From positions 24,171 through 88,170 of the IMG/VR virus record IMGVR_UViG_3300002092_000032: a stretch of DNA of 64,000 bases. The stretch is one strand, 5' to 3'. The position numbers and the translations under genes were made by a program. Positions 3,833 through 64,000 of this stretch are shown here, one piece after another. The notes under the pieces are model-generated. The model made no database searches. It worked only from the letters and a program-made list of their open reading frames with translations, and had not been told where the DNA came from. Each line of letters starts with the position of its first letter. Position 1 is the first letter of the stretch. Source of the DNA: a virus.

Positions 3833-3888
3833 CGGCAAGACAAAAAACACCGTATTAAGTATGTATTTTTTACAGTTTTAGTTTGACA

Positions 3889-3896
3889 TATAAATA
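3889..3896 (+). promoter_or_regulatory. T4-type late promoter TATAAATA
   Basis: Exact T4 late consensus, followed by an AGGAG SD (3901) and ATG (3913). Confidence 0.7.
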
Positions 3897-3912
3897 TTAT
3901 AGGAGAAATTGC

Positions 3913-47520: not shown

Positions 47521-48723
47521 GTGTCATATCAAATCTATAGAACAAATGGTACTCTACTAACGACCGTCCCTGACGGCACTGCCAATACCACCAGCACTTC
47601 CTTAACACTACCGGGTAGAAGTTATCCGGGCTATGGTCTAGTCGTTGATACTAACTTTGTCCATCAACTAGAAAACTTTTCCAATGTTTCCCCTCCACCG
47701 AACCCAATTGTAGGTCAATTATGGTATAACACTGCTAATAGCACTCTACATATTTGTCCTCTGGATGGTATAACAAGCGAAGGACAGTGGCTTCAGATTC
47801 CAATAACAAGCAGTGACGGCAACACTACATTAAGGAATGTGATCGTGACTGGTAATGTGACCGTTGCCGGAACTATTACTGCTGCACTATTTTCAGGATC
47901 AGGTGCTAACCTAACTAACTTAAATGCCGCTAACATTGTCGGCGTGGTTGCATTCGCTAATGTTGCTAGTGTCGCGAATACGGTTGCAGGTGCTAATGTT
48001 ACAGGCACTGTCGCTAACGCAGCATATGCAACAACTTCAGGCACAGCGAATACGGTTGCAGGTGCTAATGTTACAGGCACTGTCGCTAATGCAGCATATG
48101 CAACAACTTCAGGCACCGCTGACATCGCGAATGCAGTTGCAGGTGTTAATGTTACAGGCACTGTCGCTAATGCAACATATGCTGTCAGTGCAGGAAGTGC
48201 TGGATATTCATCTACTGCAATCACTGTAACTGCAAATAGTCAACCGAACATTAATATATTGACCTCGCTCACTACCATAAGCACCGGCGCGAATACTACA
48301 CCGGGTACTATCACGGGTACATGGTCACTAAGCACTGGCTCAAGACTCATCGCGACGTATGCTGACTTAGCAGAATATTATGAAGCAGATGAGGAATATG
48401 AACCAGGAACAGTAGTAGAGTTTGGTGGAGAAAAAGAAGTCACACTAGCAGAAGATTCCACTAATAGAGTAGCCGGTGTCATCTCTACTGATCCTGCCTA
48501 TATCATGAATGGCACCTGTTCTGGTATCGCGGTAGCGATTGCCCTTCAAGGTCGAGTGCCATGTAAAGTGATCGGCAACATCAAGAAAGGTGACATGCTT
48601 GTTAGTGCCGGCGGGGGATATGCAAAAGCATCAACTGATCCTAAGATGGGAACAGTTATTGGAAAAGCACTTCAAAGTCATTCAGGTCAAGGTATGATTG
48701 AAGTGGCTATCGGTAGACTATAA
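47521..48723 (+). CDS. Tail fibre/appendage protein with a C-terminal intramolecular-chaperone (Peptidase G2-like) domain
   Basis: N-terminal ENF...PNPIVGQLWYNT attachment domain; C-terminal YADLAEYY...GVISTDPAY...ALQGRVPCKV...KGDMLV...VIGKAL. Confidence 0.7.
   Translation: MSYQIYRTNGTLLTTVPDGTANTTSTSLTLPGRSYPGYGLVVDTNFVHQLENFSNVSPPPNPIVGQLWYNTANSTLHICPLDGITSEGQWLQIPITSSDGNTTLRNVIVTGNVTVAGTITAALFSGSGANLTNLNAANIVGVVAFANVASVANTVAGANVTGTVANAAYATTSGTANTVAGANVTGTVANAAYATTSGTADIANAVAGVNVTGTVANATYAVSAGSAGYSSTAITVTANSQPNINILTSLTTISTGANTTPGTITGTWSLSTGSRLIATYADLAEYYEADEEYEPGTVVEFGGEKEVTLAEDSTNRVAGVISTDPAYIMNGTCSGIAVAIALQGRVPCKVIGNIKKGDMLVSAGGGYAKASTDPKMGTVIGKALQSHSGQGMIEVAIGRL
47974..48182. repeat. 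72-bp tandem repeat x3 (ANTVAGANVTGTVANAAYATTSGT)
   Basis: Near-identical copies at 47974 and 48046; third copy at 48127 after a 9-bp insertion. Confidence 0.9.
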
Positions 48724-48731
48724 GATAAATA
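48724..48731 (+). promoter_or_regulatory. Late promoter motif GATAAATA
   Basis: Immediately after the stop of the first fibre gene and upstream of its paralogue. Confidence 0.55.
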
Positions 48732-48753
48732 AGTAGAACGAGGCGATTCACAG

Positions 48754-49992
48754 ATGGCATATACAATTCTAAAAAGTAACGGTACAGTATTAACGACCAT
48801 TCCTGATGGAACGATTAACACTACTAGCACCTCATTAGGTTTGCCGGGAAGAAACTTTGCAGGATATGGTCAAGCAGTAGATGAAAATCTAGTATATCTC
48901 GTAGAAAACTTTGCTCGTTCTACTCCACCTGCAAACCCTTTGACAGGTCAACTATGGTACAATACTAATAACGGTACTCTCAATGTTTGTCCGGCTTCTG
49001 GAACAACTAATCCTTCTCTTTGGGTCACCCTAGCGTCAACATCATCAACTGGCAACACTTCATTCGGAAATGTTACTGTAACCGGAGGGCTGCAAGCATC
49101 TAGTATTAATGTTACTGGAGCAATCACGGCAAACTCTGCGACACTAAGCTATCTTACAGTCGGTGCAAATGCAGCTATCGCTAATCTGACTGCAACTAAT
49201 GCAAATATCGGAACCTTAACTGCAACGAATATCACAACCGGATCTACTGCAAACTCAGGAACACTGACTGGTGTATGGACTATTAATGGCACAGGTATTG
49301 CCAACGGTATCAACGGAACATCTACTTGGATTACAGGTGGTAACTTAGTAGTAGGTGGAGTGGGTAGCCCTATTGGAATTAGGACAGACGGTTACTACTA
49401 TGCTAATGGTACTCCGATTAACTTTGCTGGTACATATGGTAATGCAAATGTTGCTGTTTATCTACCGACATTTTCAGGTATTGTGGGCAATGCAGACGCT
49501 AGTGCAACATTTAGAGGTTCAACTATTACAACCGGAAGTTCTGCTAATTCCGGTAGCATCACTGGCAACTGGGCACTGACTGCTGGCTCAAGAATCATCG
49601 CTACTTACGCTGACTTAGCCGAACGCTTTGCGGCTGATGATGTCTATGATGCAGGAACAGTGGTGTCTCTTGGTGGAGATGCAGAAATCACTGCGGTTCA
49701 GTTTGAATTGTCAGAAGATGTATTCGGGGTTATATCTAATACTGCTGCATATCTAATGAACGGTATGGCAGGCAGTGATGATACTCATCCTGCGGTAGCA
49801 GTGTCAGGTCGCGTCCCAGTCAAGGTTGTTGGGGTAGTTAAAAAGGGTGATCGTCTAGTTAGTGCAGGTGCCGGACTAGCCCGCGCCGCAGCTTCAGGGG
49901 AAGCATCATTCTTTAATGTCATTGGTAGAGCATTAGAAGATAAGACCAATACTAGTGTGGGTTTTGTCGAAGCCTTCGTGACGATTAAATAG
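48754..49992 (+). CDS. Second tail fibre/appendage paralogue with a Peptidase G2-like C-terminus
   Basis: Same N-terminal (GRNFAGYGQ...ENF...NPLTGQLWYNT) and C-terminal (YADLAERF...GRVPVKV...KGDRLVS...IGRAL) domains as 47521-48723. Confidence 0.7.
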   Translation: MAYTILKSNGTVLTTIPDGTINTTSTSLGLPGRNFAGYGQAVDENLVYLVENFARSTPPANPLTGQLWYNTNNGTLNVCPASGTTNPSLWVTLASTSSTGNTSFGNVTVTGGLQASSINVTGAITANSATLSYLTVGANAAIANLTATNANIGTLTATNITTGSTANSGTLTGVWTINGTGIANGINGTSTWITGGNLVVGGVGSPIGIRTDGYYYANGTPINFAGTYGNANVAVYLPTFSGIVGNADASATFRGSTITTGSSANSGSITGNWALTAGSRIIATYADLAERFAADDVYDAGTVVSLGGDAEITAVQFELSEDVFGVISNTAAYLMNGMAGSDDTHPAVAVSGRVPVKVVGVVKKGDRLVSAGAGLARAAASGEASFFNVIGRALEDKTNTSVGFVEAFVTIK

Positions 49993-50004
49993 TAGGAAAA
50001 AAGA

Positions 50005-50964
50005 ATGAGTTACTCGCAGTTTGGATCAATACAGTCTTCAGATTTTAACACATTTGTGGGCGGAAACCCCACATCTACTGCAAACACATTGAACGCTGTA
50101 TGGGCAACAGGCAGCAATATTTCAGGTTATGGTCAGACTTCTGTAGGCAATGTTACCGTTGGTCAAACAATCGCAGCACCTGATCAATGGGCGGCACTCG
50201 TAGCAAATACACAAAATGCTGCATCACACCAAGGTGCAGCAACAGTCATCGGTACTGTAGTTACTCCGGTAGCAGGCGGCATGGTCAACTACCAAGCAAA
50301 CATTCCAACAAACTTAGCTAATATTTACGGAAACAGAACTAACGCAGCAACTCAAGGATCTACAGTAGCAACGTCAAATACGCGAGCAACTACTTGGTCA
50401 ACCTCATTGAACTTTACTTTTACAGTAAGTTTCCCAAATGGAGACGCTGCGAGATATTTCTTCAACTCGGGCGGCCAGCTAAAGATCACTGCTTCAAATC
50501 CAGCTGGAACATCAGTGACCAACATCTTCAACCAGCTAGCTGCTAACGTCGGTACAGTAGTTATGAGTTCTATCGCATCTGGCACTGCAAACATTGCAGG
50601 CACCGTATATTCGGGACTTCAGCGAGTGGGTTCCCTGTCGATCACCCCGTCTCCTTACTTAACAAATAGCGGATACTATGGTCTAACAGGTTCAGCGACA
50701 AATGTTTTTCAGGTAACAAATGCATCTGGTACATACATTAATACAAATATCAAAATCTTAGCAAATACCAGTACTGCAAATGTTTCTGGTAATGGTGATA
50801 ACGGTAATGTTATTACTCTTCAGGGAATCTGGACTGATCTTCCCCAAGGAACTACTGCAAATTCAGGTTCAAGCATGACATTGACTGTGGTGCCACCAGA
50901 ATTAACTTATCTCTCTAACACTTGGGGTGCAGTAACTGTTGTTAGCACTCTAACTGGAACATAA
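50005..50964 (+). CDS. Virion structural / fibre-associated protein, paralogue A
   Basis: 319 aa Thr/Ser/Asn/Gly-rich; shares GYGQT, NAA.HQG and F.NGDAARYFFNSGGQ with the next gene. Confidence 0.55.
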   Translation: MSYSQFGSIQSSDFNTFVGGNPTSTANTLNAVWATGSNISGYGQTSVGNVTVGQTIAAPDQWAALVANTQNAASHQGAATVIGTVVTPVAGGMVNYQANIPTNLANIYGNRTNAATQGSTVATSNTRATTWSTSLNFTFTVSFPNGDAARYFFNSGGQLKITASNPAGTSVTNIFNQLAANVGTVVMSSIASGTANIAGTVYSGLQRVGSLSITPSPYLTNSGYYGLTGSATNVFQVTNASGTYINTNIKILANTSTANVSGNGDNGNVITLQGIWTDLPQGTTANSGSSMTLTVVPPELTYLSNTWGAVTVVSTLTGT

Positions 50965-50978
50965 GATTAGGAACTGAC

Positions 50979-51926
50979 ATGTCATACGCACAAGGCGGAG
51001 AAATACAAGCATCTGATCTTAATACCTTTATCGGTTCAAACCCAACTACAACAGCCAACACCATAAACACAATATGGGCTATCGGCGGAAGTGCTGCTGG
51101 ATACGGGCAAACTGCTGTTTCCACAGTTGTTGCGGGTGACGAAATATACGCGTCCAATTGGGGAAACCTTATTACAAAAACATCAAATGCAGCGTTACAC
51201 CAAGGTAGTAGTATAACTTCCGTATCTGTCCCTACAGCGGGCACCGAGATCGCATACATTTCAGCTATTCCAACTAACTTGTCAACTATCTATTCTAATA
51301 GATTAAATGCAGCGGCTCAAGGTTCAACCAATGCAAATACACAAACATATGGATCTACTTGGTCAAACTCATTAACCTTTACTTTTACTGCTACCTTTGC
51401 TAACGGAGATGCTGCAAGATATTTCTTCAATTCAGGAGGACAGTTTGCGATGACATGTTCACATCCATCTGGTGCTGGAATTGACGCAGTAGTTAGCCAA
51501 CTAGCGTCAAACATTGGCACAGTTGTCATGAGTGCTCCTTCTTCGGGAACAGCAACAATCAGTGGTACTCCTTATACAGGCATAACTAAAGTTGGCGGTG
51601 GCGGTAGCACACCGAGTCCATACTTAGTAAATAATGGCTACTTTGCATTAACTACTGCTAATGCTAATGTGTTTACGCAGACTGCATCTGGTTCTAGTTA
51701 TCTAGGCACTAATATCAAATTCTTAGTGAAATCAAACGGAACTCAAGGAACTAATGGGGATGCAGGTAGTGTCGTCACTGTGTATTGTGTCTGGTCTGAA
51801 GTTCCTACCGGAGTCGCCCTTACTGCAGGATCCACTACTACACTAACATTAAGACCACCAGAAACAACTTACATTGCTAACACCTGGGGTGCAATATCGC
51901 TATCCGGAGCGGTGACCGGCTCATAA
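50979..51926 (+). CDS. Virion structural / fibre-associated protein, paralogue B
   Basis: 315 aa, alignable end to end with 50005-50964. Confidence 0.55.
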   Translation: MSYAQGGEIQASDLNTFIGSNPTTTANTINTIWAIGGSAAGYGQTAVSTVVAGDEIYASNWGNLITKTSNAALHQGSSITSVSVPTAGTEIAYISAIPTNLSTIYSNRLNAAAQGSTNANTQTYGSTWSNSLTFTFTATFANGDAARYFFNSGGQFAMTCSHPSGAGIDAVVSQLASNIGTVVMSAPSSGTATISGTPYTGITKVGGGGSTPSPYLVNNGYFALTTANANVFTQTASGSSYLGTNIKFLVKSNGTQGTNGDAGSVVTVYCVWSEVPTGVALTAGSTTTLTLRPPETTYIANTWGAISLSGAVTGS

Positions 51927-51948: not shown

Positions 51949-51956
51949 TCTAAATA
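51949..51956 (+). promoter_or_regulatory. Late promoter motif TCTAAATA at the head of the glycan operon
   Basis: CTAAATA core as at 6751 and 10000; T-tract upstream. Confidence 0.5.
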
Positions 51957-51972
51957 CAACATGGAGTATATG

Positions 51973-52278
51973 ATGGATACAAAAACTTTAATCGCCGATG
52001 CCAAAGCCAGATTTAATCACAATTCAGCTAAAGCATATCTTAAAGAAAAATATGAAGCAAAGTTGCTCGTTGCAGATCAGGGCGGCTTGTGGAAGGCTGA
52101 CAATCAGACTATCGCAATACTGAATGCTTCACCTGATACAGAAATCGTTCTCATTGACACTTTCGGTAACCCAGTAAAAGTTAATCGTGCTGTCCTTTTA
52201 GATAGGCTTGATTTAGTCAATCATCGTGTGATGAACGACTGGTATGATGAGTGGCAGGAACTAGAAACCAAAAGATGA
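51973..52278 (+). CDS. Hypothetical protein
   Basis: About 101 aa; GGAG SD 6 nt before the ATG at 51973 (track start 51961); ATGA overlap with the next gene. Confidence 0.7.
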   Translation: MDTKTLIADAKARFNHNSAKAYLKEKYEAKLLVADQGGLWKADNQTIAILNASPDTEIVLIDTFGNPVKVNRAVLLDRLDLVNHRVMNDWYDEWQELETKR

Positions 52279-53078
52279 CCCGAGGCGTAATCTTGTTCGC
52301 TTTCAATTCTGAGAAGTTCAACTACTACGACATCGCAGAGTTTACAGCTAAAAGAATCAATCACTTTTTAAATCTTCCGGTCACTCTCATTACCGATGAA
52401 GAATCCTTTTCGGATACTGATTACAACTGGGACAAAGTGATAAAGGTAGTTCCAGATAAGGACAACTTCAGAGAATGGGGTCAATGGATCAACAAAGGCC
52501 GATTCATGGCATACGACCTAACGCCATACGATGAGACTATGGTATTAGATGTGGATTACATCGTGAATTCTGATAAACTTCTCACTGTATTTGATTTTTA
52601 CGATGACTTCTGCTGTCATAATAAGGCTGAGTTTCTTATGGCTCCTGATACTCCGCAAGAGATACTCTCAACATATAGTCATAACTCAGTATGGGCTACA
52701 GTAATGGCTTTTAAAAAGACGAAGCGGACTGAGCAAATCTTCCGCTGTATGGAGATGGTACAGAAGAACTATAAGCACTACGAGAGCATTCACAACTTTA
52801 TAGGAAGTACATATCGTAATGATTATGCCCTTACATTAGCTCTTCGTATAGTAAATGGTCATTGCGAGCGTAAAGAAGATTATATTCCATGGAACTTAGT
52901 TCATGTGGGTCAGAAGACTTTTGTTTATCCTGATAGCACAGATGATTTCAATACTGATTACACTATTATTTTTGACGCATGGGTAAGAAACAAGATCAAG
53001 AAAGAATACATTACTGTAAAAGACATGGATTTCCATGTATTAGATAAAGAATTATTTGCGGAGATTATCAATGGATAA
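52275..53078 (+). CDS. Putative GT-A fold glycosyltransferase
   Basis: GVILFAFN...LPVTLITD...YDLTPYDETMVLDVDYIV (DxD); start moved to the ATG overlapping the previous stop. Confidence 0.6.
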   Translation: MTRGVILFAFNSEKFNYYDIAEFTAKRINHFLNLPVTLITDEESFSDTDYNWDKVIKVVPDKDNFREWGQWINKGRFMAYDLTPYDETMVLDVDYIVNSDKLLTVFDFYDDFCCHNKAEFLMAPDTPQEILSTYSHNSVWATVMAFKKTKRTEQIFRCMEMVQKNYKHYESIHNFIGSTYRNDYALTLALRIVNGHCERKEDYIPWNLVHVGQKTFVYPDSTDDFNTDYTIIFDAWVRNKIKKEYITVKDMDFHVLDKELFAEIING

Positions 53079-53826
53079 AGGTTTCGTAATCATGGCTCAG
53101 GGCGAAGACTACGAGAAGTGCGCCCAAGCCCTAGAACTCAGCATCAAGCATGTCATGCCCGATGCCAATGTAACCATCATCACGACTGATATGTTACCAT
53201 ACGGAGATCAGGCTCCAAAGACCTTTTGGAAGCTACAGAACGACTGGCAAGTCTATGAAGCTAGCCCGTATGAGTATACGATCAAACTAGAGTCAGACAT
53301 GTATCTTCCGCGTTCCGTTGACTATTGGTGGGATATATTGAGGCAACGTGATGTAGTCGTGTCAACAACTATCCGCGACTTCAGACAAAATGTATCTGAT
53401 ATCAAGGCTTATCGTAGATTCATCGTTGAGAATAATCTTCCTGATACTTACAATGGCATCACTTATTTCAAGAAGTCTGAACTTGCACAGAAGTTCTTTG
53501 AGACTACAAGACATATCTGGGAACACTGGGACGATTTCCGTAATACACTAAAATGCAATGTAAAAGAAGAGGCAACAACTGATTGGGTTTATGCGATTGC
53601 ATGTCATATTTTAGGGGATGAAAATACAACTCTACCACAATTCAGTGACTTCAGCATGATTCATATGAAGCAGTTTATTAATGGTACTCCTACTGAAGAT
53701 TGGACTGAGACTTTTATCCCTGAACTATTGCCGCATACTTTTAGAATCAATACTATTCCACAAATATACCCAGTGCATTATCATGTTAAGTCGTTTGCTG
53801 ACACGATACTAAAGGAATTCAGATGA
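53071..53826 (+). CDS. Putative GT-A fold glycosyltransferase (paralogue)
   Basis: GFVIMAQG...NVTIITTD...YEASPYEYTIKLESDMY; same architecture as the preceding gene. Confidence 0.55.
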   Translation: MDKGFVIMAQGEDYEKCAQALELSIKHVMPDANVTIITTDMLPYGDQAPKTFWKLQNDWQVYEASPYEYTIKLESDMYLPRSVDYWWDILRQRDVVVSTTIRDFRQNVSDIKAYRRFIVENNLPDTYNGITYFKKSELAQKFFETTRHIWEHWDDFRNTLKCNVKEEATTDWVYAIACHILGDENTTLPQFSDFSMIHMKQFINGTPTEDWTETFIPELLPHTFRINTIPQIYPVHYHVKSFADTILKEFR

Positions 53827-54155
53827 ACGAAGAAGAGAAATTTGTTATCGTATGGGAACAACCCGTGCTAGAAGAAGTAGAACACCGGCTCTATCATGAT
53901 GATGACGGCTATGTGTTGTTCTATACATGTGATAAACCCGAAGGCAACTATATTGTAATTGACACTATCACTTATGCAGAGGGTAGACCTGATGTAAGAG
54001 TCATTGATGGCAAAATCGCAAGAATAAATGCTGGATCAGTTATCTCCCGATATTATAATTCAGCCGATGTAGGATTTTTGTGTGAGAAAGAAGATATCAG
54101 TGTGATCACCGATACAGATGGACAATACTGGGAAGTAAAAAATTATGTCTTATGA
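53823..54155 (+). CDS. Hypothetical protein
   Basis: 110 aa, ATGA-coupled to the upstream gene. Confidence 0.7.
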   Translation: MNEEEKFVIVWEQPVLEEVEHRLYHDDDGYVLFYTCDKPEGNYIVIDTITYAEGRPDVRVIDGKIARINAGSVISRYYNSADVGFLCEKEDISVITDTDGQYWEVKNYVL

Positions 54156-55095
54156 TGATATTTTGGATGTAGCGGATTGCGATATTATATACCTAAGCTA
54201 TGACGAGCCGGCCAAAGAGGAATTCTGGCTTAAAATTAAGAATATGTGTCCATGGGCTAAACGAGTTGACGGGATCAAGGGTTCCGACGCCGCACACAAG
54301 GCCGCTGGCGAGGCTAGTGACACTTTTAGGTTTTTCCTCATTGATGGCGACAACATGCCTGATGAAGACTTCTTCAATATGCAATTAGATTTTACTGGTA
54401 AAGATCCAACTTATAAGTTAGCACAATATCGCTGGCGGGCAATCAATTCTATCAATGGACTGCGTTATGGTAACGGTGGCATGAGTTCATGGACTAAGAC
54501 CTATGTCGCAAGCATGAAGACTCATGAGACTAGCGACGGCGATGATACGACTGCGGTAGATTTCTGTATGGATTCTTCAAACAATCTTTATTGGGCGATG
54601 TGGGATTGTTATTCAACTACCTATCCTAACTGCACTCCCTTTCAAGCCTGGCGTGCTGGTTTCCGCGAAGGTGTCAAGATGGTACTTGATCGCGGCGCAA
54701 AGCCTAACATTGAAGACTTCAAGGAAAGGGTAGCTAGTCGCAATCTAAATAACCTCACTGTTTGGCACAATGTTGGAGCAGATGTAGAGAACGGCTACTG
54801 GGCCATGTATGGTTCAAGACTCGGCACCTACTTAACTATGTTATCTACCTGGGACCACAAGAATGTGATGTGGTTTGATAACTTTCCTGAAATGTGGGAA
54901 GAGAGCAAGAACTTTGATCCTAAAGCACAAGCTACTAGAATAGGCGAGACGCTGAACGATAAACTAGGTCTACCGATGTGTATGCTAGATCCAGAACAAT
55001 CAAAGTTCTTCAAGCGTCACTATAACGCTGATAAGTATAATATAGGTCCGCTTGTCAAAGAGATGGATGTGATCCGCAAGATTGAAGGCTGGTAA
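54145..55095 (+). CDS. Putative nucleotide-sugar transferase-like protein
   Basis: IIYLSYDEP...AAHKAA...FFLIDGDN (DxD after hydrophobic strands). Confidence 0.4.
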   Translation: MSYDDILDVADCDIIYLSYDEPAKEEFWLKIKNMCPWAKRVDGIKGSDAAHKAAGEASDTFRFFLIDGDNMPDEDFFNMQLDFTGKDPTYKLAQYRWRAINSINGLRYGNGGMSSWTKTYVASMKTHETSDGDDTTAVDFCMDSSNNLYWAMWDCYSTTYPNCTPFQAWRAGFREGVKMVLDRGAKPNIEDFKERVASRNLNNLTVWHNVGADVENGYWAMYGSRLGTYLTMLSTWDHKNVMWFDNFPEMWEESKNFDPKAQATRIGETLNDKLGLPMCMLDPEQSKFFKRHYNADKYNIGPLVKEMDVIRKIEGW

Positions 55096-55138
55096 AGGCA
55101 AATTACTCAGCACCCAAATATAACAACAGAGAGTAAAT

Positions 55139-56539
55139 ATGAGCAATTACGACAATTATCAACGCCATTTACAAGAAACGAAAAATGAACTAGACGGAGT
55201 AAGTTCTAGCTTTTGTGCGGCAAAATGGAAGCAGGTTACTATGCACTTGCAAAATGGCCACACTCATAGTTGTCACCATCCTAAAACACACCTCGTGCCT
55301 CTAGAAGAAATTAAACGTAATCCTACTGCATTACATAACAGTGAATTCAAAAAGCAACAGCGAAAACTTATGCTTGAAGGCGAACGACCATCAGAGTGTG
55401 ATTACTGTTGGCGAGTTGAAGATCAAGGGGATAGTCATAGTGACCGAGTATATAAAAGTGCTGATAGCTGGGCTAAACCCTTTATCGCTGATATTGCTAG
55501 TAAACCATGGGATGACAACGTTGATCCAAGCTATGTAGAAGTTAGTTTTGGCAACGTATGTAACTTTAAATGCAGCTATTGTGCCCCTCATATTAGCAGT
55601 CAGTGGATGGAAGAAATAGAAAGACATGGCCCATATCCTACTAGTGACAACTTTAATAATCTAGACTGGTTAAAGAGTCAAAGCATGATTCCGATTCCTA
55701 ATAGAGAAGAGAATCCATATGTAGATGCATTTTGGGAATGGTGGCCAAACATGTACAACAGTCTACAGCAGTTCAGAATCACTGGTGGCGAACCACTTCT
55801 CAACAAGAACACGTTTAAAGTTTTAGATTACATCATTGCTAATCCTAATCCCAACTTGGAAGTTAGCATTAATACTAATCTGAATGCACCTGACGATATT
55901 ATTAACAAGTTCTTTGAGAAGGCAAAACACATAGTTGAAGGTAAAAAGTTGAAAAACTTTAAGTTATTCACTAGTGCCGAAGCTCACGGAAAACAAAGCG
56001 AGTATATCAGATTTGGCATGGAATATGACAAGTGGTTAAGTAACATTCACAAAGCATATAAAGAAATTCCTGGCATTCAAGTCACTATAATGAGTACTTA
56101 CAATTTCTTAAGCATGACCTCTTATATTCCTTTTCTGCAAGACATTTTGGATATCAAGAATCAATATCATCGCTGGGATGATAAGAGAACTCCTATGCTA
56201 CTGGATATTCCGTATCTACGTTTCCCGAATCATCAGGCAATATTCATTATGGAACCGGAGCATCTTGAATTGATATATGATCAAGTAACCTTTATGTATC
56301 AGAACTTAGAATACAAGGAATGGTACGGAAGTGCCAACCGCGGATTCTTTGAACATGAAGCAGATAAACTTAAGCGTATCTATAATATTGTAAAGAATAA
56401 TCCAGTTAACGAATGGACCAATGTCAATAGAAAGAACTTTGTTGCCTTTGTTGATGAGCATGATCGCAGGCGCAGAACTAATTTTCTAGAAACATTCCCT
56501 GAATTTGAAGGTGCGTATAATAAATGGAAAAATATGTGA
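55139..56539 (+). CDS. Radical SAM protein with an extra N-terminal Cys/His cluster
   Basis: CNFKCSYC (CxxxCxxC), TGGEPLL; N-terminal CAAKW...HSCHH...CDYCW. Confidence 0.9.
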   Translation: MSNYDNYQRHLQETKNELDGVSSSFCAAKWKQVTMHLQNGHTHSCHHPKTHLVPLEEIKRNPTALHNSEFKKQQRKLMLEGERPSECDYCWRVEDQGDSHSDRVYKSADSWAKPFIADIASKPWDDNVDPSYVEVSFGNVCNFKCSYCAPHISSQWMEEIERHGPYPTSDNFNNLDWLKSQSMIPIPNREENPYVDAFWEWWPNMYNSLQQFRITGGEPLLNKNTFKVLDYIIANPNPNLEVSINTNLNAPDDIINKFFEKAKHIVEGKKLKNFKLFTSAEAHGKQSEYIRFGMEYDKWLSNIHKAYKEIPGIQVTIMSTYNFLSMTSYIPFLQDILDIKNQYHRWDDKRTPMLLDIPYLRFPNHQAIFIMEPEHLELIYDQVTFMYQNLEYKEWYGSANRGFFEHEADKLKRIYNIVKNNPVNEWTNVNRKNFVAFVDEHDRRRRTNFLETFPEFEGAYNKWKNM

Positions 56540-56542
56540 CAC

Positions 56543-57358
56543 ATGAAAACACGATTTTTTGCATTTGGATGTAGCTACACCCAATATTCATACGCCACCT
56601 GGGCAGATTTTGTGGGGTGTAATTTTGAAGAATACTATAATTATGGGAGGGGAGGGGCATCAAATTCTTTTATTATGAACAGAGTAGTAGAATGCAATGA
56701 ACTTTTTAAATTTAATCCAGAAACTGATACCGTGATAGTCATGCTTTCCGGTTTTGGTAGATTTTCTTATCTTAATAAAAAATGGTTTACTGATGGGGAT
56801 TTATACTCATACTATGGTAACACTAAAGATATTAAAATTAAGGGATTTATAGAAAATATGTGGAGTGAAGAAGCAGCTATCTATAGTTCTTGGATAGCTG
56901 CTAAAACTATTAAAATGATCCTTAAGGATATACCACATAAATTTTTTATGAGCATAGATAATCGTCATTATTCGGAATCAGATGGTTCTAAATGGGGCAA
57001 GGAACAACTGATAAGACCTAAGGCAATAGAAAAAACAAGAGACATTTATGATATGCTAGACGACACAGAATCAATGGACGAATGGAAGTCAAAGAAATAT
57101 ACCTGGGCAGATCATTATGTTTGGAAAGAAGAAAACAATAGAATTGACGGTCATCCTACTCAAAAAATGCATTTTGATTTTGTAAAAGATAAGTTACCAG
57201 AATATTTAACTGATAAATCTGAAAATTTATTTAACTATGTAGAAGAAATATTTATAGATAGCACACAACATAATCAAGGAACAAATTTTGCTCATAGTAC
57301 GCATGGAAAACTTACTAATAATTTCAATGTAGATTGTTTGTTTGGAGATAACCTATGA
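56543..57358 (+). CDS. SGNH-like hydrolase/acyltransferase
   Basis: FFAFGCSYT, NYGRGGASN, C-terminal DGHP. Confidence 0.6.
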   Translation: MKTRFFAFGCSYTQYSYATWADFVGCNFEEYYNYGRGGASNSFIMNRVVECNELFKFNPETDTVIVMLSGFGRFSYLNKKWFTDGDLYSYYGNTKDIKIKGFIENMWSEEAAIYSSWIAAKTIKMILKDIPHKFFMSIDNRHYSESDGSKWGKEQLIRPKAIEKTRDIYDMLDDTESMDEWKSKKYTWADHYVWKEENNRIDGHPTQKMHFDFVKDKLPEYLTDKSENLFNYVEEIFIDSTQHNQGTNFAHSTHGKLTNNFNVDCLFGDNL

Positions 57359-58773
57359 CACATAAATTGCATTTTTTATATGATTTTGTATTTCCTAATA
57401 TGTTTTTGCCCAATGCACTTATAACAGAATACGGAATAGTAAATTACTTGTCGTCATTGCACGTAAGTAAATTGAATCAACATCCGGATAGTATACTTGA
57501 AAGAATGCATGGGTTTGATGACCAGACGATTGGTGGAAAACTGTATGATAATGCATTTGGCACACAACCAAATGCACACACCGACCTTCAATTGCGAAAC
57601 CCTTTATATTCTGAATATTTTGAGTTTGCCAACGGATCAATGTTTGAATGGCAGAACAAAGTTAATAAGTATTTTTACCCTATAGGCATGACTCCTCATA
57701 TTAATGATTTCGTTGGAATAAGTCACCCCGGAAGTAAATCAAACGGTGAATATTTTTGGAAACACATGTCTACTCTAGCACTGAAAGATGCACAACAGGG
57801 AAAAGCTATAATTTTTATAGACTATGCCCAAGAAAATTTTATTGACCGAAACTCTTACGTTAAGTTACATGAATCATTGGCTAATAGCGGAATTCCTAAG
57901 AATAACATACTTTTAGCCTTTAATAGTTTTAATGCTCAAGAAGTCTATGAAAATTGGTTCCCTGAAGAAGAACGCCGCCTAGAAGTCAGAAATTGGCCAT
58001 TTGTCATGGCTAACACTGCATTCCATTATCATATTAATCCCAGTCAACGAATGTCTGTGCAAGAATTTCAAAACACCAGAAACACAGTTAGGAATAAACA
58101 TTTCATCTTTAAGATAAGACGTCCGCGAAACCATCGTTTAGCTTTTTTGTATAAGATGGTCAGTGACAATCTGATAGAAAAAGCTGATTGGTCATGTTTG
58201 ACCCGCATAAAGTTTGATCAAAACAGTGCTGTTGAAACTCAGAATAGATATCAATTTGAATTTGATTTGAATAAGATTGAGGAATTGTGTAACAACACCC
58301 CGCATACTTTGGATAGCGAACAAGGTCTTACATATGATACAGTAAGTGCATGGACTGATAGAAGTCCTGACTCACATAAAAATTCATATTTATATTTGTG
58401 TACCGAGACGTTTATTAACGGAGAATATAAATCTTTAACTGAAAAAGTTTTTAAACCTATCGTTAATTTTCAACCATTTTTGTTTATAGCGTACCCTGGC
58501 GCATTAGAACTATTACGAAGTTTGGGATTCAAAACATTTTCACCATTGATTGATGAAAGCTATGATAACGAATCGGATGAGATTAAAAGATTAGGTATGA
58601 TATATGCTGAGTTAAATAGAATATGCTCAATGAGTAAAGAAGAAATACATGCCTGGTATTGGAGCATGGAAGAAATATTAATTCATAACTATACTCATTT
58701 TTTGAATATTTGGAAAAATGAAAAACATGCTGAAGAATTAATAAATTATATGATCATGAGAACTAAATTATGA
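57355..58773 (+). CDS. Putative glycosyltransferase with a GT10 (fucosyltransferase)-like C-terminal motif
   Basis: YLCTET...LTEKVFKPIVNFQPFLFIAYPGALELLRSLGFKTF...IDESYD. Confidence 0.45.
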   Translation: MTHKLHFLYDFVFPNMFLPNALITEYGIVNYLSSLHVSKLNQHPDSILERMHGFDDQTIGGKLYDNAFGTQPNAHTDLQLRNPLYSEYFEFANGSMFEWQNKVNKYFYPIGMTPHINDFVGISHPGSKSNGEYFWKHMSTLALKDAQQGKAIIFIDYAQENFIDRNSYVKLHESLANSGIPKNNILLAFNSFNAQEVYENWFPEEERRLEVRNWPFVMANTAFHYHINPSQRMSVQEFQNTRNTVRNKHFIFKIRRPRNHRLAFLYKMVSDNLIEKADWSCLTRIKFDQNSAVETQNRYQFEFDLNKIEELCNNTPHTLDSEQGLTYDTVSAWTDRSPDSHKNSYLYLCTETFINGEYKSLTEKVFKPIVNFQPFLFIAYPGALELLRSLGFKTFSPLIDESYDNESDEIKRLGMIYAELNRICSMSKEEIHAWYWSMEEILIHNYTHFLNIWKNEKHAEELINYMIMRTKL

Positions 58774-59315
58774 ACTACAAGAACCCGTCCTGGCAACACG
58801 TAGATACATCTTATTTAAAAACATTTGGTAATGAAGTACCTGTTTATTCTCCCTCTGTTTATAGAGAATACCGGGGAGAGATATTTACGACATATCATTC
58901 TGAAACACACCCAGTAAAAGAACTACTACCTAATGATGCAGTAGTGCATAATAGGTTTTCCAAATCATATGTCGGCGTGCTACGAGGATTGCATTATGAT
59001 GATAAGACATGGAAATTGGTACAAGCATTAGTTGGTGAAATATACCTAGTAGTACTAGATGTCCGTGAAGGTTCTGAAACATTTGGCAAGTGGGAGTCAT
59101 ACATAATCTCTGAACAGACTAGGGATCAGGTACTAGTTCCGCCGGGATTCGCAAATGGACATTTTGCATTAACCAATTGTGTATTTCATTATAACTTGTT
59201 CTACACTGGTGGATATGTTGATGAAAATAAACAAGGGGTAATTAAATGGAATGATAAGCGATTCAACATTGAATGGCCCTCGGATTCCCCTATACTTCAA
59301 AAGAGAGATAGATGA
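58770..59315 (+). CDS. NDP-4-keto-sugar 3,5-epimerase (RmlC cupin family, Cj1430-type)
   Basis: RGEIFT, SYVGVLRGLHYDDKTWKLV, VPPGFANGH, WNDKRFNIEWP..SPILQKRD. Confidence 0.85.
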   Translation: MNYKNPSWQHVDTSYLKTFGNEVPVYSPSVYREYRGEIFTTYHSETHPVKELLPNDAVVHNRFSKSYVGVLRGLHYDDKTWKLVQALVGEIYLVVLDVREGSETFGKWESYIISEQTRDQVLVPPGFANGHFALTNCVFHYNLFYTGGYVDENKQGVIKWNDKRFNIEWPSDSPILQKRDR

Positions 59316-59938
59316 TAAATTTAGAACAATATCCGATTCAACGAGAATCAATTTATACCGAAGATGATTTGATTAAGTTTGAAGAATTAATAGCATCTCA
59401 TTGGGAATCTGCGAGGATACGAGGCCCGGTGCATTTGTCTAACGGCAATGAAAAACAACTCATAGAAATATTCAAAAGAATTAGTACTACTGATTGGGTA
59501 TTTTCTACTTGGAGATCCCATTATCATGCACTACTTAAAGGGATATCGCCGGACTGGTTAGAACAACAAATTTTAGCTGGAAAATCTATTACAATTTGTA
59601 ATGTGGATGAAAAGTTTTATTCTTCCGCTATAGTTGCTGCAACACTATCGATAGCACTAGGAGTGGCACAGTCAATCAAAAAAGATAACGGGACTGACAA
59701 AGTATGGTGTTTTGTCGGCGACATGGGTTTTGAATCTGGTATATTTTATGAAGTGCACAAGTATGCTAGAAATTTTGATTTACCGCTTTATTTTATAGTA
59801 GAAGATAACGGAATATCTACTTATACCCCAACAGAAGCAACATGGAATTCTAAAAGAGATATACCAGACGATGTGATTCATTATTCATATGCTTCTAAAT
59901 TTCCACATTATGGAACAGGTAAATGGATAGCATTTTAA
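59312..59938 (+). CDS. Short ThDP-dependent dehydrogenase E1 alpha-like subunit
   Basis: GPVHLSNGNE, STWRSHYHAL, ThDP motif VGDMGFESG...FIVEDN; only 208 aa. Confidence 0.8.
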   Translation: MINLEQYPIQRESIYTEDDLIKFEELIASHWESARIRGPVHLSNGNEKQLIEIFKRISTTDWVFSTWRSHYHALLKGISPDWLEQQILAGKSITICNVDEKFYSSAIVAATLSIALGVAQSIKKDNGTDKVWCFVGDMGFESGIFYEVHKYARNFDLPLYFIVEDNGISTYTPTEATWNSKRDIPDDVIHYSYASKFPHYGTGKWIAF

Positions 59939-61314
59939 AACTAGTCTATAGTGATTGGTGTAATACGGGAACTTATAAAGAACCTATTCCAAACGGGGTG
60001 CATTCGGCGTTGGTGAAATATATTCAAGCTGCTGTTTTAGAACACAAAACGTTAGGTGAAGTGCAACAAGAAGTAGAATCAGAAAATAATTCATTGGTAT
60101 TTGTGCATGACCATGGCAATTTTATAGGTTATCATAGAAAATATCATCATGAATCTACACTGGTTACTACAGAAGATATAGTAGATGATAACTCTATCTA
60201 TCTTTATCCGGTTGAAATAAGAACAACCCTCGATTCGCTGTTTAATACAATGGATTTTGTCCTTGATGGTCAAAAATACGAGTACAGCTTTAAAAACAGT
60301 ATTCCGTCAGATGTAATATCGCTTTTAAAAAGTGGCAAAGTAAAATTATTAATTAATTACCTACATGAACCGATGGCTTCAACTGAAGACATTTATTTTA
60401 CTAATATTGAAAATAAGATGAATGAATTGGGAATAGATGGTAGTAATATCATAGTAGTTGGTGGTAACAGGTATAATCATCCAACAAGTAAATTTAAATT
60501 TACAGACGGTGGTATATTAATAGGTCAGCAAACGGCAGCTGACACAGATTCTTATCCTAAATTAACAGCATTGGGATACGTTTCTGATATAGTCAGAGAA
60601 TCCGATTTGAATAAAAACAAAATAAGAAATAAAAGATTTTTATGTTTTAATAGAACAATGAAGTCGCATAGATTTATGATTGCTTATCTAGCATTAAAAT
60701 ACAATTTATTAGAAAATAGCATATTCAGCTTTATCAACTTAAACGGATTTACAACTGACGGCATATACCATTGGCTTACTTTTTATCTAGGTGATGTTGA
60801 TAATTTGCGAGAAATTTCGTCAACCATACATGATTTTATTCCTTACGAAATCGACACGCATCATTTATCAGTTGCCGAAAAACAAGGGTTTGGAAATGAA
60901 AATTCTAAAAAAGAACTATATTTGGACACCTATTTACATTTAACCTCCGAGACTAAATTTGACACCGGTGATGATCCCTTCTTCTCAGAAAAAACATACA
61001 GACCATTGATGAATCTGCAACCTTTCATATATATTGGAAATCATCATGCTTTAGAGAAATTACACAATATGGGATTTAAAACATTTTATCCCTACATAAA
61101 TGAAGATTACGATTTAGAAGAAGATCCGAAGAAACGAATGGCAATGATAGCCAAAGAGATAGAAATTTTCAACAATAAACCTATCTCAGAGATACATCGG
61201 TGGTATTATTCTATAATTGATGTACTGGTGCATAATCAAAATCATTTAAAGACGATTAAAAACATAAATCCTTTTGAAAAGGTATATTTTGACATCAGAG
61301 GAATGTATGAATAA
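59923..61314 (+). CDS. Second GT10-like putative glycosyltransferase
   Basis: HLTSET...FSEKTYRPLMNLQPFIYIGNHHALEKLHNMGFKTF...INEDYD; paralogous to 57355-58773. Confidence 0.45.
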   Translation: MDSILKLVYSDWCNTGTYKEPIPNGVHSALVKYIQAAVLEHKTLGEVQQEVESENNSLVFVHDHGNFIGYHRKYHHESTLVTTEDIVDDNSIYLYPVEIRTTLDSLFNTMDFVLDGQKYEYSFKNSIPSDVISLLKSGKVKLLINYLHEPMASTEDIYFTNIENKMNELGIDGSNIIVVGGNRYNHPTSKFKFTDGGILIGQQTAADTDSYPKLTALGYVSDIVRESDLNKNKIRNKRFLCFNRTMKSHRFMIAYLALKYNLLENSIFSFINLNGFTTDGIYHWLTFYLGDVDNLREISSTIHDFIPYEIDTHHLSVAEKQGFGNENSKKELYLDTYLHLTSETKFDTGDDPFFSEKTYRPLMNLQPFIYIGNHHALEKLHNMGFKTFYPYINEDYDLEEDPKKRMAMIAKEIEIFNNKPISEIHRWYYSIIDVLVHNQNHLKTIKNINPFEKVYFDIRGMYE

Positions 61315-62245
61315 AGTTTTAATTACCGGCGGCGCCGGCTATCTTGGCTCAACACTATCTGAATATCTTTTAGATAAAGGATATGAAGTCACTGTGTTGG
61401 ACAACCTATTATATAAACAACTATCACTGTTGCATCTCTTTAAGCGTGATAAGTTTACATTCCTATTAGGTGATGTTAGGAATACTGAATTGTTAATTGA
61501 TTTGGTCAAAAGACATGATATAATCATTCCATTGGCTGCTATTGTTGGAATGCCAGCATGTAAAGCGAACCCTCAACTAACGATTGACGTTAATTATAAA
61601 CAAATTGAAACTATCGTAGGTGTATTAACCGATTCCCAAAAGTTAATATTACCAAATACAAATAGTCAGTATGGATCTTCTGATTCTATCATCACTGAAG
61701 AAAGTCCGTTCAAGCCATTATCATTATACGCTGAAACAAAATGCGATGCTGAAAATACAGTATTAAAAAAGGGTAATGGGGTAGTGCTAAGATTAGCGAC
61801 GGTGTTTGGGGTAAGTCCTAGAATGAGACAAGACTTGTTGGTTAATGATTTTGTATACAAGAGCATAGTTGACGGTTACCTAGTACTATTTGAGGCACAT
61901 TTCAAACGTAACTACATCCACGTACAAGATATTGCACAGACATTTGAGTTCGTGATAAATAACTATGCTACATGTAAGGGACAAGCATTCAACGTAGGAC
62001 TGTCAACTGCTAATTTAAGCAAACTTGAATTGGCTAATAAAATCAAAGAATATGTTCCCAATTTGGTAATTAAACAGGATGAATTTAAAGAAGATTTTGA
62101 CAAAAGAAATTATATTGTTTCTAATGACAAGATAGAAAGATTAGGATGGAAACCATTATATAGCTTAGATTATGGAATCAAGCAATTACTGGAAGCATAC
62201 CCACTAATCATTACCCAAAACAACAGGAGTTTCACAAACCTATGA
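61307..62245 (+). CDS. Extended SDR NDP-sugar dehydrogenase/epimerase (Campylobacter Cj1427-type)
   Basis: GGAGYLG, IIPLAAIVG, PNTNSQYG, YAETK (YxxxK), RLATVFGVSPRMRQDLLVNDF; start moved to the ATG at 61307. Confidence 0.85.
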   Translation: MNKVLITGGAGYLGSTLSEYLLDKGYEVTVLDNLLYKQLSLLHLFKRDKFTFLLGDVRNTELLIDLVKRHDIIIPLAAIVGMPACKANPQLTIDVNYKQIETIVGVLTDSQKLILPNTNSQYGSSDSIITEESPFKPLSLYAETKCDAENTVLKKGNGVVLRLATVFGVSPRMRQDLLVNDFVYKSIVDGYLVLFEAHFKRNYIHVQDIAQTFEFVINNYATCKGQAFNVGLSTANLSKLELANKIKEYVPNLVIKQDEFKEDFDKRNYIVSNDKIERLGWKPLYSLDYGIKQLLEAYPLIITQNNRSFTNL

Positions 62246-62694
62246 CAAAAAGAAGATATATACAAACCCTATCTGAACTGGTAGATCGCCTAAGTATTGT
62301 ACAATTAAAGGAGGTGTTTATACCAGAACACAAAGAAGAATATAGTCAGGAAATTGATGATATTGTGCATGATATCCAACTCATCATCGATGAGAACAAG
62401 GCAGTATTAGATGCTGATACTGTTCGTGCTATCGTGGTTGTTTCACAAATGAACCTTCATATTTGGCACAATGAATCAAATTACCGCCGAGGAATTAAAG
62501 ATGGCAATAATTTAGAGTTAACACACGGCTTAAACGGTATTCGTAATACTGCTAAAAATAAAATACAAGAAATTATTGGCGGAAGAAAAGATTACAAGGT
62601 TGACTGTTTGGCTGCTGAATGGAAAGATTGGGAAATCAGTTGGTCAAAAAAAGATGATTCTGAATCTCACCGCAAGGCCAAAGAAAAAAAATAA
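62242..62694 (+). CDS. Helical hypothetical protein (DUF6165-like)
   Basis: LSELVDRLSIVQLK...NLHIWHNES..R...LNGIRN..KNKI pattern; ATGA-coupled. Confidence 0.45.
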   Translation: MTKRRYIQTLSELVDRLSIVQLKEVFIPEHKEEYSQEIDDIVHDIQLIIDENKAVLDADTVRAIVVVSQMNLHIWHNESNYRRGIKDGNNLELTHGLNGIRNTAKNKIQEIIGGRKDYKVDCLAAEWKDWEISWSKKDDSESHRKAKEKK

Positions 62695-63533
62695 TGAAAA
62701 CAAAATCTGATAAGGTAATTAAAGGCATGGTATTTGCAGGATGCTCTTTTACTTGGGGACAAGGATTGTATTTTTATAGCAATTTACCAACGTTAGCCGA
62801 ACCTAAGCCATATCATTACGATCAAAGTTTGGTAAAAGAAACTCATATGGCATATATGAGATCGGTAAGACATCCTAGACTAGTGGTAAATCATTTTAAC
62901 ACGTATGAGATTACTCAACCATTTAACGGCGGATCGCATGATTCAATTTTAAATTGGTGGAAAGCTAGTTTTTCTAAAGACCCCAATTGGAATTCTGAGT
63001 CTGATTTTACCGTACCTAAATTAGATTATAGTGATATATCACATTTAGTATTTCAATGCACCCAACCACATAGATGTTGGCTTATGCTAAACGATAAAGA
63101 TAACCGACCGTATCAAGTTAACTTTAATGATGCATATCGACCAGAAAATCGTGATGATTTTATCAGATGGTTAAAAAATAATAATATGACGGAAGATGAT
63201 TATCAGCAGTACTATATTAATCAAAGCATGGATAAAGTAAAAAATTTCTTACAAGAAGTTGAAAGTAATGGTGTTAAAACTGTTATATTTACTTGGCCAA
63301 CTGAGAACGTACCATACATAAAAAATGATACATGGCTCAGTGAAAGATTTCTGAACTTTAAATACAATGGTATGACCTACGATAGCATTGATACGTTGAT
63401 GCGGTATAATGCAGAATTAGAAATATTAAGAGATACTGATAATTTTGAAATTACCCCCGGTGATCATCATCCTTCGCAAAAATGTCATCAAGTAATGGCT
63501 GAGAATATAATAAATCACATAGAAAGAATGTAA
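62694..63533 (+). CDS. SGNH-like hydrolase/acyltransferase
   Basis: VFAGCSFTWGQG, NGGSHD, C-terminal GDHHP. Confidence 0.6.
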   Translation: MKTKSDKVIKGMVFAGCSFTWGQGLYFYSNLPTLAEPKPYHYDQSLVKETHMAYMRSVRHPRLVVNHFNTYEITQPFNGGSHDSILNWWKASFSKDPNWNSESDFTVPKLDYSDISHLVFQCTQPHRCWLMLNDKDNRPYQVNFNDAYRPENRDDFIRWLKNNNMTEDDYQQYYINQSMDKVKNFLQEVESNGVKTVIFTWPTENVPYIKNDTWLSERFLNFKYNGMTYDSIDTLMRYNAELEILRDTDNFEITPGDHHPSQKCHQVMAENIINHIERM

Positions 63534-63546
63534 TGAGCATAAAATA

Positions 63547-64000
63547 ATGACACGACAAAACACCGCATATAAAGATGCATTGACCAGTGCTATGACATTT
63601 CTTGGAGAGCAAGAAAATACTATTTTTGTAGGTCAGCAGATTGTTTATGCAGGAAATCCAATGAGTACTACATTAGGTAATGTGTCAAAGGATAAGATGA
63701 TTGAATTGCCAGTCATGGAAGAAACTCAAATGGGAATGAGTTTGGGAATAGCCATGATGGGAAAGACTGTAATTACGTTTTATCCACGATGGGATTTTAT
63801 TATTTCTGCAACAACTCAATTGGTAAATCATGTAGATAAGTTTGAATTAATGACAGGCAAAAGAGCAAATATATTAATTCGTTTGGGAAAAGGATCAGAC
63901 AAACCATTAGATCCGGGTCATCAACATAAAGGTAACTATTTAGAAGAATTTAAATCATTATGCCCTAATATTATATTTCACGATTTAAAAGATCATTCTA
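63547..64000 (+). CDS. ThDP enzyme E1 beta / transketolase pyrimidine-binding subunit (runs off the window)
   Basis: Not in the ORF track. MTRQNTAYKDALTSAMTFLGEQENTIFVGQQI...ELPVMEETQMGMSLGIAM...FYPRWDF...QLVNH...GHQH. Confidence 0.85.
   Translation, partial: MTRQNTAYKDALTSAMTFLGEQENTIFVGQQIVYAGNPMSTTLGNVSKDKMIELPVMEETQMGMSLGIAMMGKTVITFYPRWDFIISATTQLVNHVDKFELMTGKRANILIRLGKGSDKPLDPGHQHKGNYLEEFKSLCPNIIFHDLKDHS

Follow-up and report, generated by a model that had tools for sequence, protein, structure and literature searches.

To our knowledge, glycosylated phage virions have been documented mainly for mycobacteriophages. For PBCV-1 with its protein A64R and for the fibril gene clusters of giant viruses, virus-encoded and host-independent pathways place unusual sugars on virion surface proteins in eukaryotic hosts, and these clusters contain no radical S-adenosylmethionine (SAM) enzymes. 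In mycobacteriophages, one or a few soluble phage glycosyltransferases (GTs) encoded beside structural genes modify the C-termini of capsid and tail-tube proteins, as shown experimentally, and an O-glycosylation in the cytoplasm was proposed (Freeman et al. 2023, as far as summarised in PMC12619734). PMC12619734, the 'moraphage' paper, also describes four core glycosyltransferase orthogroups for another aquatic jumbo lineage, which may or may not be the one studied here and is not counted as evidence. Here, a window of 64,000 bp was analysed, bases 24171-88170 of the 102-kb IMG/VR record IMGVR_UViG_3300002092_000032, which carries an operon of putative glycan assembly genes directly behind four tail fibre genes. 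The record was rated 29 % complete by CheckV and therefore represents part of a jumbo phage genome of about 350 kb. A minus-strand open reading frame (ORF) matching T4 gp55 marks this phage as a distant relative of T4. The sequencing runs listed with the phage are DNA only and originate mostly from freshwater and lake metagenomes. With moderate confidence, we read the operon as a late-expressed set of cytoplasmic enzymes that would decorate the phage's own fibre-type virion proteins, the fibres and/or a giant protein, with a strain-variable glycan. This reading is favoured because the linkage to the genes of the fibres and the giant protein is deep and exclusive and because of a shared late promoter motif.

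Fifteen plus-strand ORFs fill positions 51961-64000, connected mostly by 4-nt ATGA overlaps, once by a 1-nt TAATG overlap and otherwise separated by gaps of 3-43 nt, so the first-pass annotation was right in describing at least 15 co-oriented, coupled genes behind the fibre genes. The remaining record, for which the window numbering is extended past 64000, showed that the operon crosses the window edge and ends at about 71572, presenting a total of 21 ORFs in approximately 19.6 kb. The operon is a mosaic of a conserved core, a low-GC cassette and a tail beyond the window. The core (51961-56539) comprises two small proteins (s105 and s110), two paralogous GT-A-like candidates (A275 and B256, here A and B), a GT-A-fold protein (C316, here C) and an N-twitch radical SAM enzyme. 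The C family was used to retrieve 80 IMG/VR loci (L007-L086), and each of them shows the order s105-A-B-s110-C-radical SAM downstream of the giant-protein and fibre genes. Counted gene by gene, B preceded C in every one of the 80 loci and a fibre homologue did so in 79; for s105, A and the giant protein the figures were 77, 76 and 67, the missing cases being due to truncated contigs. The same order occurs in a 531-kb ENA contig, a 298-kb JGI contig, a 47 %-identical lineage with a Collar-domain fibre, and Ralstonia phage RsoM2USA, with identities to the latter of 36 % for C (ORF350), 40 % for the radical SAM enzyme (RsoM2USA_349), 29 % for A (RsoM2USA_353) and 31 % for B. The suggestion that synteny with fibre genes be checked across relatives was followed up, and synteny holds in every relative examined. 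C316 has at least 8000 homologues, the best 120 of them being 78-91 % identical, and its family forms at least 1172 clusters at 50 % identity. In a tblastn search of 50,697 phage records with C316, RsoM2USA was the sole match; a megablast of the region against these records gave none. Together with a conserved 206-aa protein encoded upstream of the operon, C316 is the best conserved protein of the region.

The candidate acceptors precede the operon. FibA and FibB possess a C-terminal intramolecular-chaperone domain (Peptidase_G2) and match virion or tail-fibre PHROGs, FibC and FibD are rich in Ser, Thr, Asn and Gly. All four contain 30-38 % Ser, Thr and Asn against a background of 23 %, in agreement with the earlier description of the fibre proteins as rich in these residues. 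The RsoM2USA homologue of the giant protein, ORF361, is a virion protein confirmed by mass spectrometry (PMC8504454).

T4-type late promoters consist of a -10 element resembling TATAAATA without a -35 element and are read by the gp55 sigma factor. In the window, the last of the fibre genes stops at 51926; CTAAATA comes 24 bp later (51950-51956), with GGAG and ATG behind it, and the extended motif, CTAAATAC, is identical to TATAAATA at six of eight positions. As a statistical signal the bare 7-mer was rejected, with eight copies in the window and 13.6 expected. The core TAAATA is located 8-45 nt upstream of a same-strand start in 18 of its 84 copies in the 102-kb record, where 1.25 were expected, a 14-fold enrichment. 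Among the relatives, the arrangement CTAAATAC-AGGAG-ATG upstream of s105 was kept in 36 of 77 cases, and the same motif was present upstream of fibB homologues in 76 of 88. Before the internal genes A, B, s110 and C only 0-2 cases were observed, compared to 3 % in random windows. Motif position, motif conservation and the gp55 homologue give good sequence-level support for a T4-type late promoter common to the cluster and the fibre genes; the initial report of a CTAAATA late motif right after four fibre genes thereby gained support. No convincing internal plus-strand terminator was detected by a terminator scan of the operon, scans for sigma-70 promoters and for terminators gave counts no higher than the shuffle expectation, and no tRNA gene flanks the cluster. 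In a distant clade (e.g., L041, L046, L062, L065, L068, L071 and L076), the s105 homologue is preceded not by CTAAATAC but by a GC-rich hairpin resembling a terminator and then by (C)TGTATAATA, only about 7 nt from the ATG. This suggests a different promoter type for the operon of that clade, possibly with a leaderless mRNA. Several genes of the record carry TAAATA only 4-5 nt before the first in-frame ATG (11-12 nt from motif start to ATG), among them two upstream of the window and those that begin at 66391 and 74260. Either their mRNAs lack a leader or translation begins at a later codon, as it probably does in s105 (51961 versus 51973).

Late timing and position had been taken in the first-pass annotation as arguments for virion glycosylation or late remodelling of the host surface and against DNA hypermodification. 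The fibre synteny, the shared motif and the gp55 homologue strengthen the case from timing and position. Together with the lack of membrane segments, flippase and polymerase and with the missing hydroxymethyl-pyrimidine route of near-complete relatives, they favour a cytoplasmic protein acceptor over DNA or an exported polysaccharide, which supports the first-pass interpretation in part; the acceptor remains a predicted one, and late timing by itself leaves DNA as a possible target. A tailored sugar, perhaps with carbamoyl or acetyl groups, could be attached to a phage DNA base before packaging and evade restriction. Such a role would suit a T4 relative with a gp55 homologue, and the variable enzyme content would suit an arms race. 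Carbamoyltransferases and radical SAM enzymes are present in known DNA-hypermodification clusters (Pyle et al. 2024, to the extent cited in PMC12619734). The cluster, however, lies in the structural module in every relative, following the fibres, and carries the promoter motif of the fibre genes. The usual acceptors in glycosylated DNA require a hydroxymethylase of the thymidylate synthase family or a TET enzyme. PF00303 was absent from two relatives that keep the cluster, G002 (320 kb) and G003 (337 kb), which are 92 % and 100 % complete; this is in line with setting DNA aside. Tet_JBP (PF12851) was absent from all five records searched, a weak blank since control genomes also gave none. We consider a modification of DNA unlikely.

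Table 1. Positions of the operon genes and of related features in window numbering
Feature	Position	Strand	Remarks
T4-type late-promoter-like motif CTAAATAC	51950-51957	+	followed by GGAG at 51963-51966
s105, small conserved protein	51961-52278	+	true start probably ATG 51973, giving 101 aa as in relatives
A275, GT-A-like candidate	52251-53078	+	likely start ATG 52275 (ATGA overlap)
B256, paralogue of A275	53056-53826	+	ESD replaces DxD; likely start ATG 53071
s110, small acidic conserved protein	53823-54155	+	
C316	54145-55095	+	GT-A-fold N-domain (residues 1-162) and helical C-terminal domain
N-twitch radical SAM enzyme, 466 aa	55139-56539	+	Cys26/45/87/90 upstream, CX3CX2C at 141-148
SGNH-like protein 1	56543-57358	+	G-C-S block I, D-G-H-P block V; opens cassette
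GT-B-fold glycosyltransferase a, 472 aa	57355-58773	+	TET...TEK motif
RmlC-like cupin (NDP-4-keto-6-deoxyhexose epimerase/isomerase family)	58770-59315	+	PF00908, E 8e-35
ThDP-binding half of split E1/transketolase-like enzyme	59312-59938	+	PF00676, E 8.5e-14
GT-B-fold glycosyltransferase b	59923-61314	+	paralogue of a in C-terminal half
NAD-dependent sugar epimerase/reductase (SDR)	61274-62245	+	PF01370, E 1e-30; likely start ATG 61307
p150, helical protein	62242-62694	+	
SGNH-like protein 2	62694-63533	+	G-C-S, D-H-H-P
Pyrimidine-binding half of split ThDP enzyme	63547-64000, on to 64086	+	PF02779; closes cassette
1115-aa repeat protein	66391-69738 (L002:4562-7909)		headed by perfect TATAAATA
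Giant protein, 5864 aa	29119-46713	+	candidate acceptor; weak homologue of RsoM2USA ORF361
Four fibre-like genes fibA-fibD	47521-51926	+	candidate acceptors
gp55 homologue (late sigma)	16183-17076	-	match to PDB 7d7c_F, E 1e-4

The GT assignment of the core is firmest for C316, which was confirmed as GT-A at the fold level. Its N-terminal domain is a single Rossmann-like alpha/beta/alpha nucleotide-sugar-binding domain, and a DGD motif (residues 67-69) after a hydrophobic strand was kept in 90 % or more of the 60 diverse members compared. The best Foldseek match in the PDB was the capsid-glycosylating A64R of PBCV-1, with 10-14 % identity within the N-terminal 160 residues. Sub-threshold Pfam matches of the family were to Glycos_transf_2 (6 of 60 members) and Glyco_tranf_2_3 (4 of 60), with a best E value of 0.004. 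A role of the C family in glycan synthesis is supported by a natural fusion, since in the 738-aa protein P0176 (locus L091) residues 423-667 form a C316-like domain attached to a GT28/EryCIII-like GT-B domain. A275 and B256 are GT-A-like candidates at the level of motifs. In A275, D100-x-D102 is invariant across the family; the only profile leads for the pair were weak, Mannosyl_trans3 in 2 of 51 members and in 11 % of one Atlas cluster, and hhalign gave a probability of 5 % for the A family against the C family. Of three DxD GT-A-like proteins announced in the first-pass annotation, two thus possess the motif, one of them with the fold, and B256 does not. Searches of the PDB with the C316 and A275 sequences yielded chance matches only, and the A family profile found nothing meaningful among PDB sequences. 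The s105 protein had no family match. Homologue clusters listed in Atlas searches with C316, A275 and the 1115-aa repeat protein of the operon tail were nearly all viral and hypothetical. The radical SAM enzyme predicted for the operon was confirmed at the family level: the 466-aa protein belongs to NF033640 (N_Twi_rSAM, twitch domain-containing), scoring 342.7 bits against a cut-off of 170.

The low-GC cassette (56543-64086) extends from the first SGNH-like gene through the beta-like half of an enzyme dependent on thiamine diphosphate (ThDP). It has a GC content of 33.4 % and a third-position GC content (GC3) of 23-30 %, compared to about 40 % and 32-46 % in the flanks, and was present in just one of the 80 relatives (L016). 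On account of this composition and distribution, we read the cassette as a probable captured insertion. Nucleotide-sugar enzymes had been predicted, and at the family level they are there. The RmlC-like cupin matched PF00908 with 120 bits, above the cut-off, and TIGR01221 with 114 bits, below the equivalog cut-off of 155.75. The short-chain dehydrogenase/reductase (SDR) has the YxxxK motif and lacks the Asp-Glu dehydratase pair. The two halves of the E1-like ThDP enzyme (208 and 179 aa) are separated by four genes (about 3.6 kb); in the fused phrog_34187 (405 positions) the ThDP-binding half corresponds to positions 4-200 and the pyrimidine-binding half to 236-367. Neither a nucleotidyltransferase nor a 4,6-dehydratase was found in the cassette. 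Two SGNH proteins had also been described. Block I- and V-like motifs occur in both, and G-x-S and H-P are invariant in six aligned proteins; blocks II and III were not identified, and no profile match was significant, the best E value for Lipase_GDSL being 0.0014 for one protein, below the cut-off. The same invariant G-x-S and H-P are present in a lone plus-strand gene in the head-gene region (3883-4668) that has no PHROG match.

The two further GTs of the cassette had been labelled GT10-like, a label that was not confirmed: PF00852 is absent from both proteins and from 35 family members (E<=1), and the proteins are now designated GT-B. The FucT motif of GT10 reads ...ENS...YxTEK, and the 472-aa protein has TET...TEK. 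They share 32 % identity over 222 aa (E 3e-29). In its structural model, the 472-aa protein was confirmed as a predicted GT-B at the fold level. The best VIA match of the model was T4 beta-glucosyltransferase, a DNA-modifying enzyme and as such a point for DNA as the target, but this match was tied with EXT and FucT, GT-B enzymes that do not act on DNA. GtfA, Asp1 and Gap1 were among the top Foldseek matches. Sequence comparison gave no such guidance: the GT-B family profile found no GT among PDB sequences, a Pfam tally over the family members had no match, the protein sequence produced chance matches in the PDB, and tblastn against the 50,697 phage records found none.

Taken for itself, the cassette resembles an O-antigen module, with its RmlC-like cupin, SDR, ThDP branch enzyme and acetyl and carbamoyl tailoring, and a GC content of 33 % versus 40 % suggests a cellular source. 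The transferases might act at the inner membrane on undecaprenyl-linked intermediates of host O-antigen or capsule and rely on host export, a late change of the host surface serving superinfection exclusion or preventing progeny from sticking to debris. We regard this as very unlikely. Flippase, polymerase, initiating phosphoglycosyl transferase and ABC transporter are all absent from the cluster, and none of the cluster enzymes has a membrane segment. The chemistry is therefore taken to be cytoplasmic, which weighs against a self-contained exported polysaccharide. Moreover, the core is virus-specific, and enzymes acting on the host surface would not be expected to stay so tightly linked to fibre genes across deep divergence. 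The sole membrane-type protein of the cluster is encoded by a small ORF at about 70770-71099, with a signal-peptide-like N-terminus and one hydrophobic segment.

Beyond the window, the operon continues with the remainder of the gene for the ThDP beta-like half, followed by genes for a NodU-type carbamoyltransferase, a third SGNH-like protein, the 1115-aa repeat protein, a second radical SAM enzyme, the small signal-peptide protein and a GNAT protein. The carbamoyltransferase and the repeat protein recur in a subset of the relatives. The repeat protein contains six tandem repeats of approximately 70-80 aa each (FDFSWRPDP...IYVWGN...LEYHVPGAT) and ends in a C316-like domain; this domain is probably catalytically dead, because its DGD is replaced by FAK. 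A conserved ORF of about 33-42 aa (approximately 64098-64220; L002:2269-2391) ends in ...YRKRLKELRKRDPFIY(K), and its stop codon overlaps the start of the carbamoyltransferase gene. It was found in the record of the window and in L006, L029, L034 and L085 and could encode a small subunit, a leader peptide or a precursor.

Behind C, most relatives instead carry tandem N-twitch radical SAM paralogues, with a median of four and a maximum of eight per locus, and the GT-B family is likewise found there in 47 of 80 loci. One 320-kb relative has 18 N_Twi_rSAM genes above the NF033640 cut-off; none was detected in 14 control cellular genomes. The dominance of these paralogues raises the possibility that the transferases are secondary, and that the radical SAM enzymes modify the fibre or giant protein or a small peptide by cross-links or epimerisation. 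Pfam records SPASM matches for two paralogues, peptides are frequent substrates of SPASM/twitch enzymes, and the conserved small peptide ORF before the carbamoyltransferase gene could be cited in favour. We judge this quite unlikely, since the same GT-B family stands beside radical SAM arrays and the sugar cassette, which suggests a common sugar substrate. Neither an element for the recognition of ribosomally synthesized and post-translationally modified peptides nor a precursor-like variable core was seen, and the cluster of this phage has only two radical SAM genes, the second beyond the window. Since the GT-B family accompanies the radical SAM arrays as well as the classical cassette, we infer that the radical SAM paralogues are alternative sugar-tailoring enzymes. 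A wider form of this idea, possible though doubtful, is a hypervariable fibre-editing locus in which the GT-A trio primes the fibre and giant proteins and interchangeable cassettes build non-standard sugars on or for the virion surface. In that tentative scheme, the cassettes would be either expanded N-twitch radical SAM arrays (up to eight copies in a locus and 18 in a genome) or sugar-nucleotide pathways acquired by capture. Such a locus would be the phage counterpart of O-antigen diversity, tuning host recognition or shielding against defences, and N_Twi_rSAM would represent a new class of radical sugar-tailoring enzymes.

For the glycosylation of virion proteins, the following sequence of events is proposed. 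The late sigma factor of the gp55 type would fire the CTAAATAC promoter alongside the fibre promoters, a timing deduced from the motif. A275, B256, C316, the N-twitch radical SAM enzyme and the two small proteins may then catalyse priming or core transfer onto protein, a step for which the GT-A fold was demonstrated in C316 and the acceptor is presumed. The cassette would convert a host-supplied nucleoside diphosphate (NDP)-4-keto-6-deoxyhexose into an epimerised, reduced and probably C2-branched sugar by means of the RmlC-like cupin, the SDR and the split ThDP enzyme, whose families are established and whose chemistry is predicted. The two GT-B paralogues, with a common donor-binding half and differing acceptor halves, could add this sugar at two positions. 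Finally, the SGNH-like proteins, the NodU-like carbamoyltransferase and the GNAT protein may tailor the glycan.

Several points weigh against this proposal. The sugar on virion proteins, its acceptor and the late expression are all predicted from the genes. Late expression would also be compatible with DNA modification, the mom gene of phage Mu being late. Soluble transferases can act on lipid-linked intermediates and use host export. The candidate GT-A status of A275 and B256 stems from a motif and weak leads. The classical nucleotide-sugar genes appear to be a rare insertion (1 of 80); the conserved element consists of the GT-A-like proteins and the N-twitch radical SAM enzyme. The lineage-wide partners are radical SAM enzymes with presumed substrates, and copies of them also occur dispersed in the genomes of relatives, away from the fibre genes. 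The neighbours of dispersed copies in the 320-kb relative, compared by BLAST to this cluster, included no recognisable partners.

What would be new is that virions of T4-related giants are glycosylated by virus-encoded enzymes, with radical SAM proteins as an unusual component, and for the glycosylation itself we see the chances as about even. If it is confirmed, virion glycosylation would extend to T4-related jumbo phages abundant in freshwater, soil and wastewater and would be linked to receptor-binding proteins, and the uncharacterised N_Twi_rSAM family would obtain its first functional context. The answer bears on phage host range, on the evasion of immunity and defence systems and on the discovery of sugar-modifying radical enzymes. 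RsoM2USA is cultivable and is the only isolate with the core (ORF354-349), thus a direct testing is possible.

With the mycobacteriophage systems, the cluster shares soluble phage GTs beside structural genes and a proposed action in the cytoplasm. It differs in its size of about 21 genes, among them those for three GT-A-like proteins, two GT-B proteins and radical SAM enzymes as well as a cassette for sugar nucleotides, in its linkage to fibre and giant-protein genes, and in being known from genes alone. The clusters of PBCV-1 and the giant viruses are comparable as virus-encoded routes to unusual sugars on the virion surface, the match of A64R to C316 being at the fold level only. The alpha- and beta-glucosyltransferases of T4 are encoded by early genes beside nucleotide metabolism and need the synthesis of hydroxymethylcytosine by gp42, whereas the genes described here are of the late type and fibre-linked, and the near-complete relatives lack a hydroxymethylase of the thymidylate synthase family. 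Bacterial pathways for branched-chain deoxysugars (yersiniose, aldgarose, methyleurekanate) use ThDP enzymes resembling E1 alpha/beta or of the YerE type. As in these pathways, one cassette of the phage combines an RmlC-like cupin with an SDR and a ThDP enzyme in two parts; its ThDP halves, however, are minimal and separated, it lacks a nucleotidyltransferase and a 4,6-dehydratase, and its chemistry is a predicted one. The serine-rich-repeat adhesins with their GtfA/B and Asp/Gap proteins are, unlike the phage proteins, coupled to accessory Sec export, and the resemblance is restricted to the fold level; they too are large, fibrillar, Ser/Thr-rich surface proteins that are glycosylated in the cytoplasm by GT-B enzymes.

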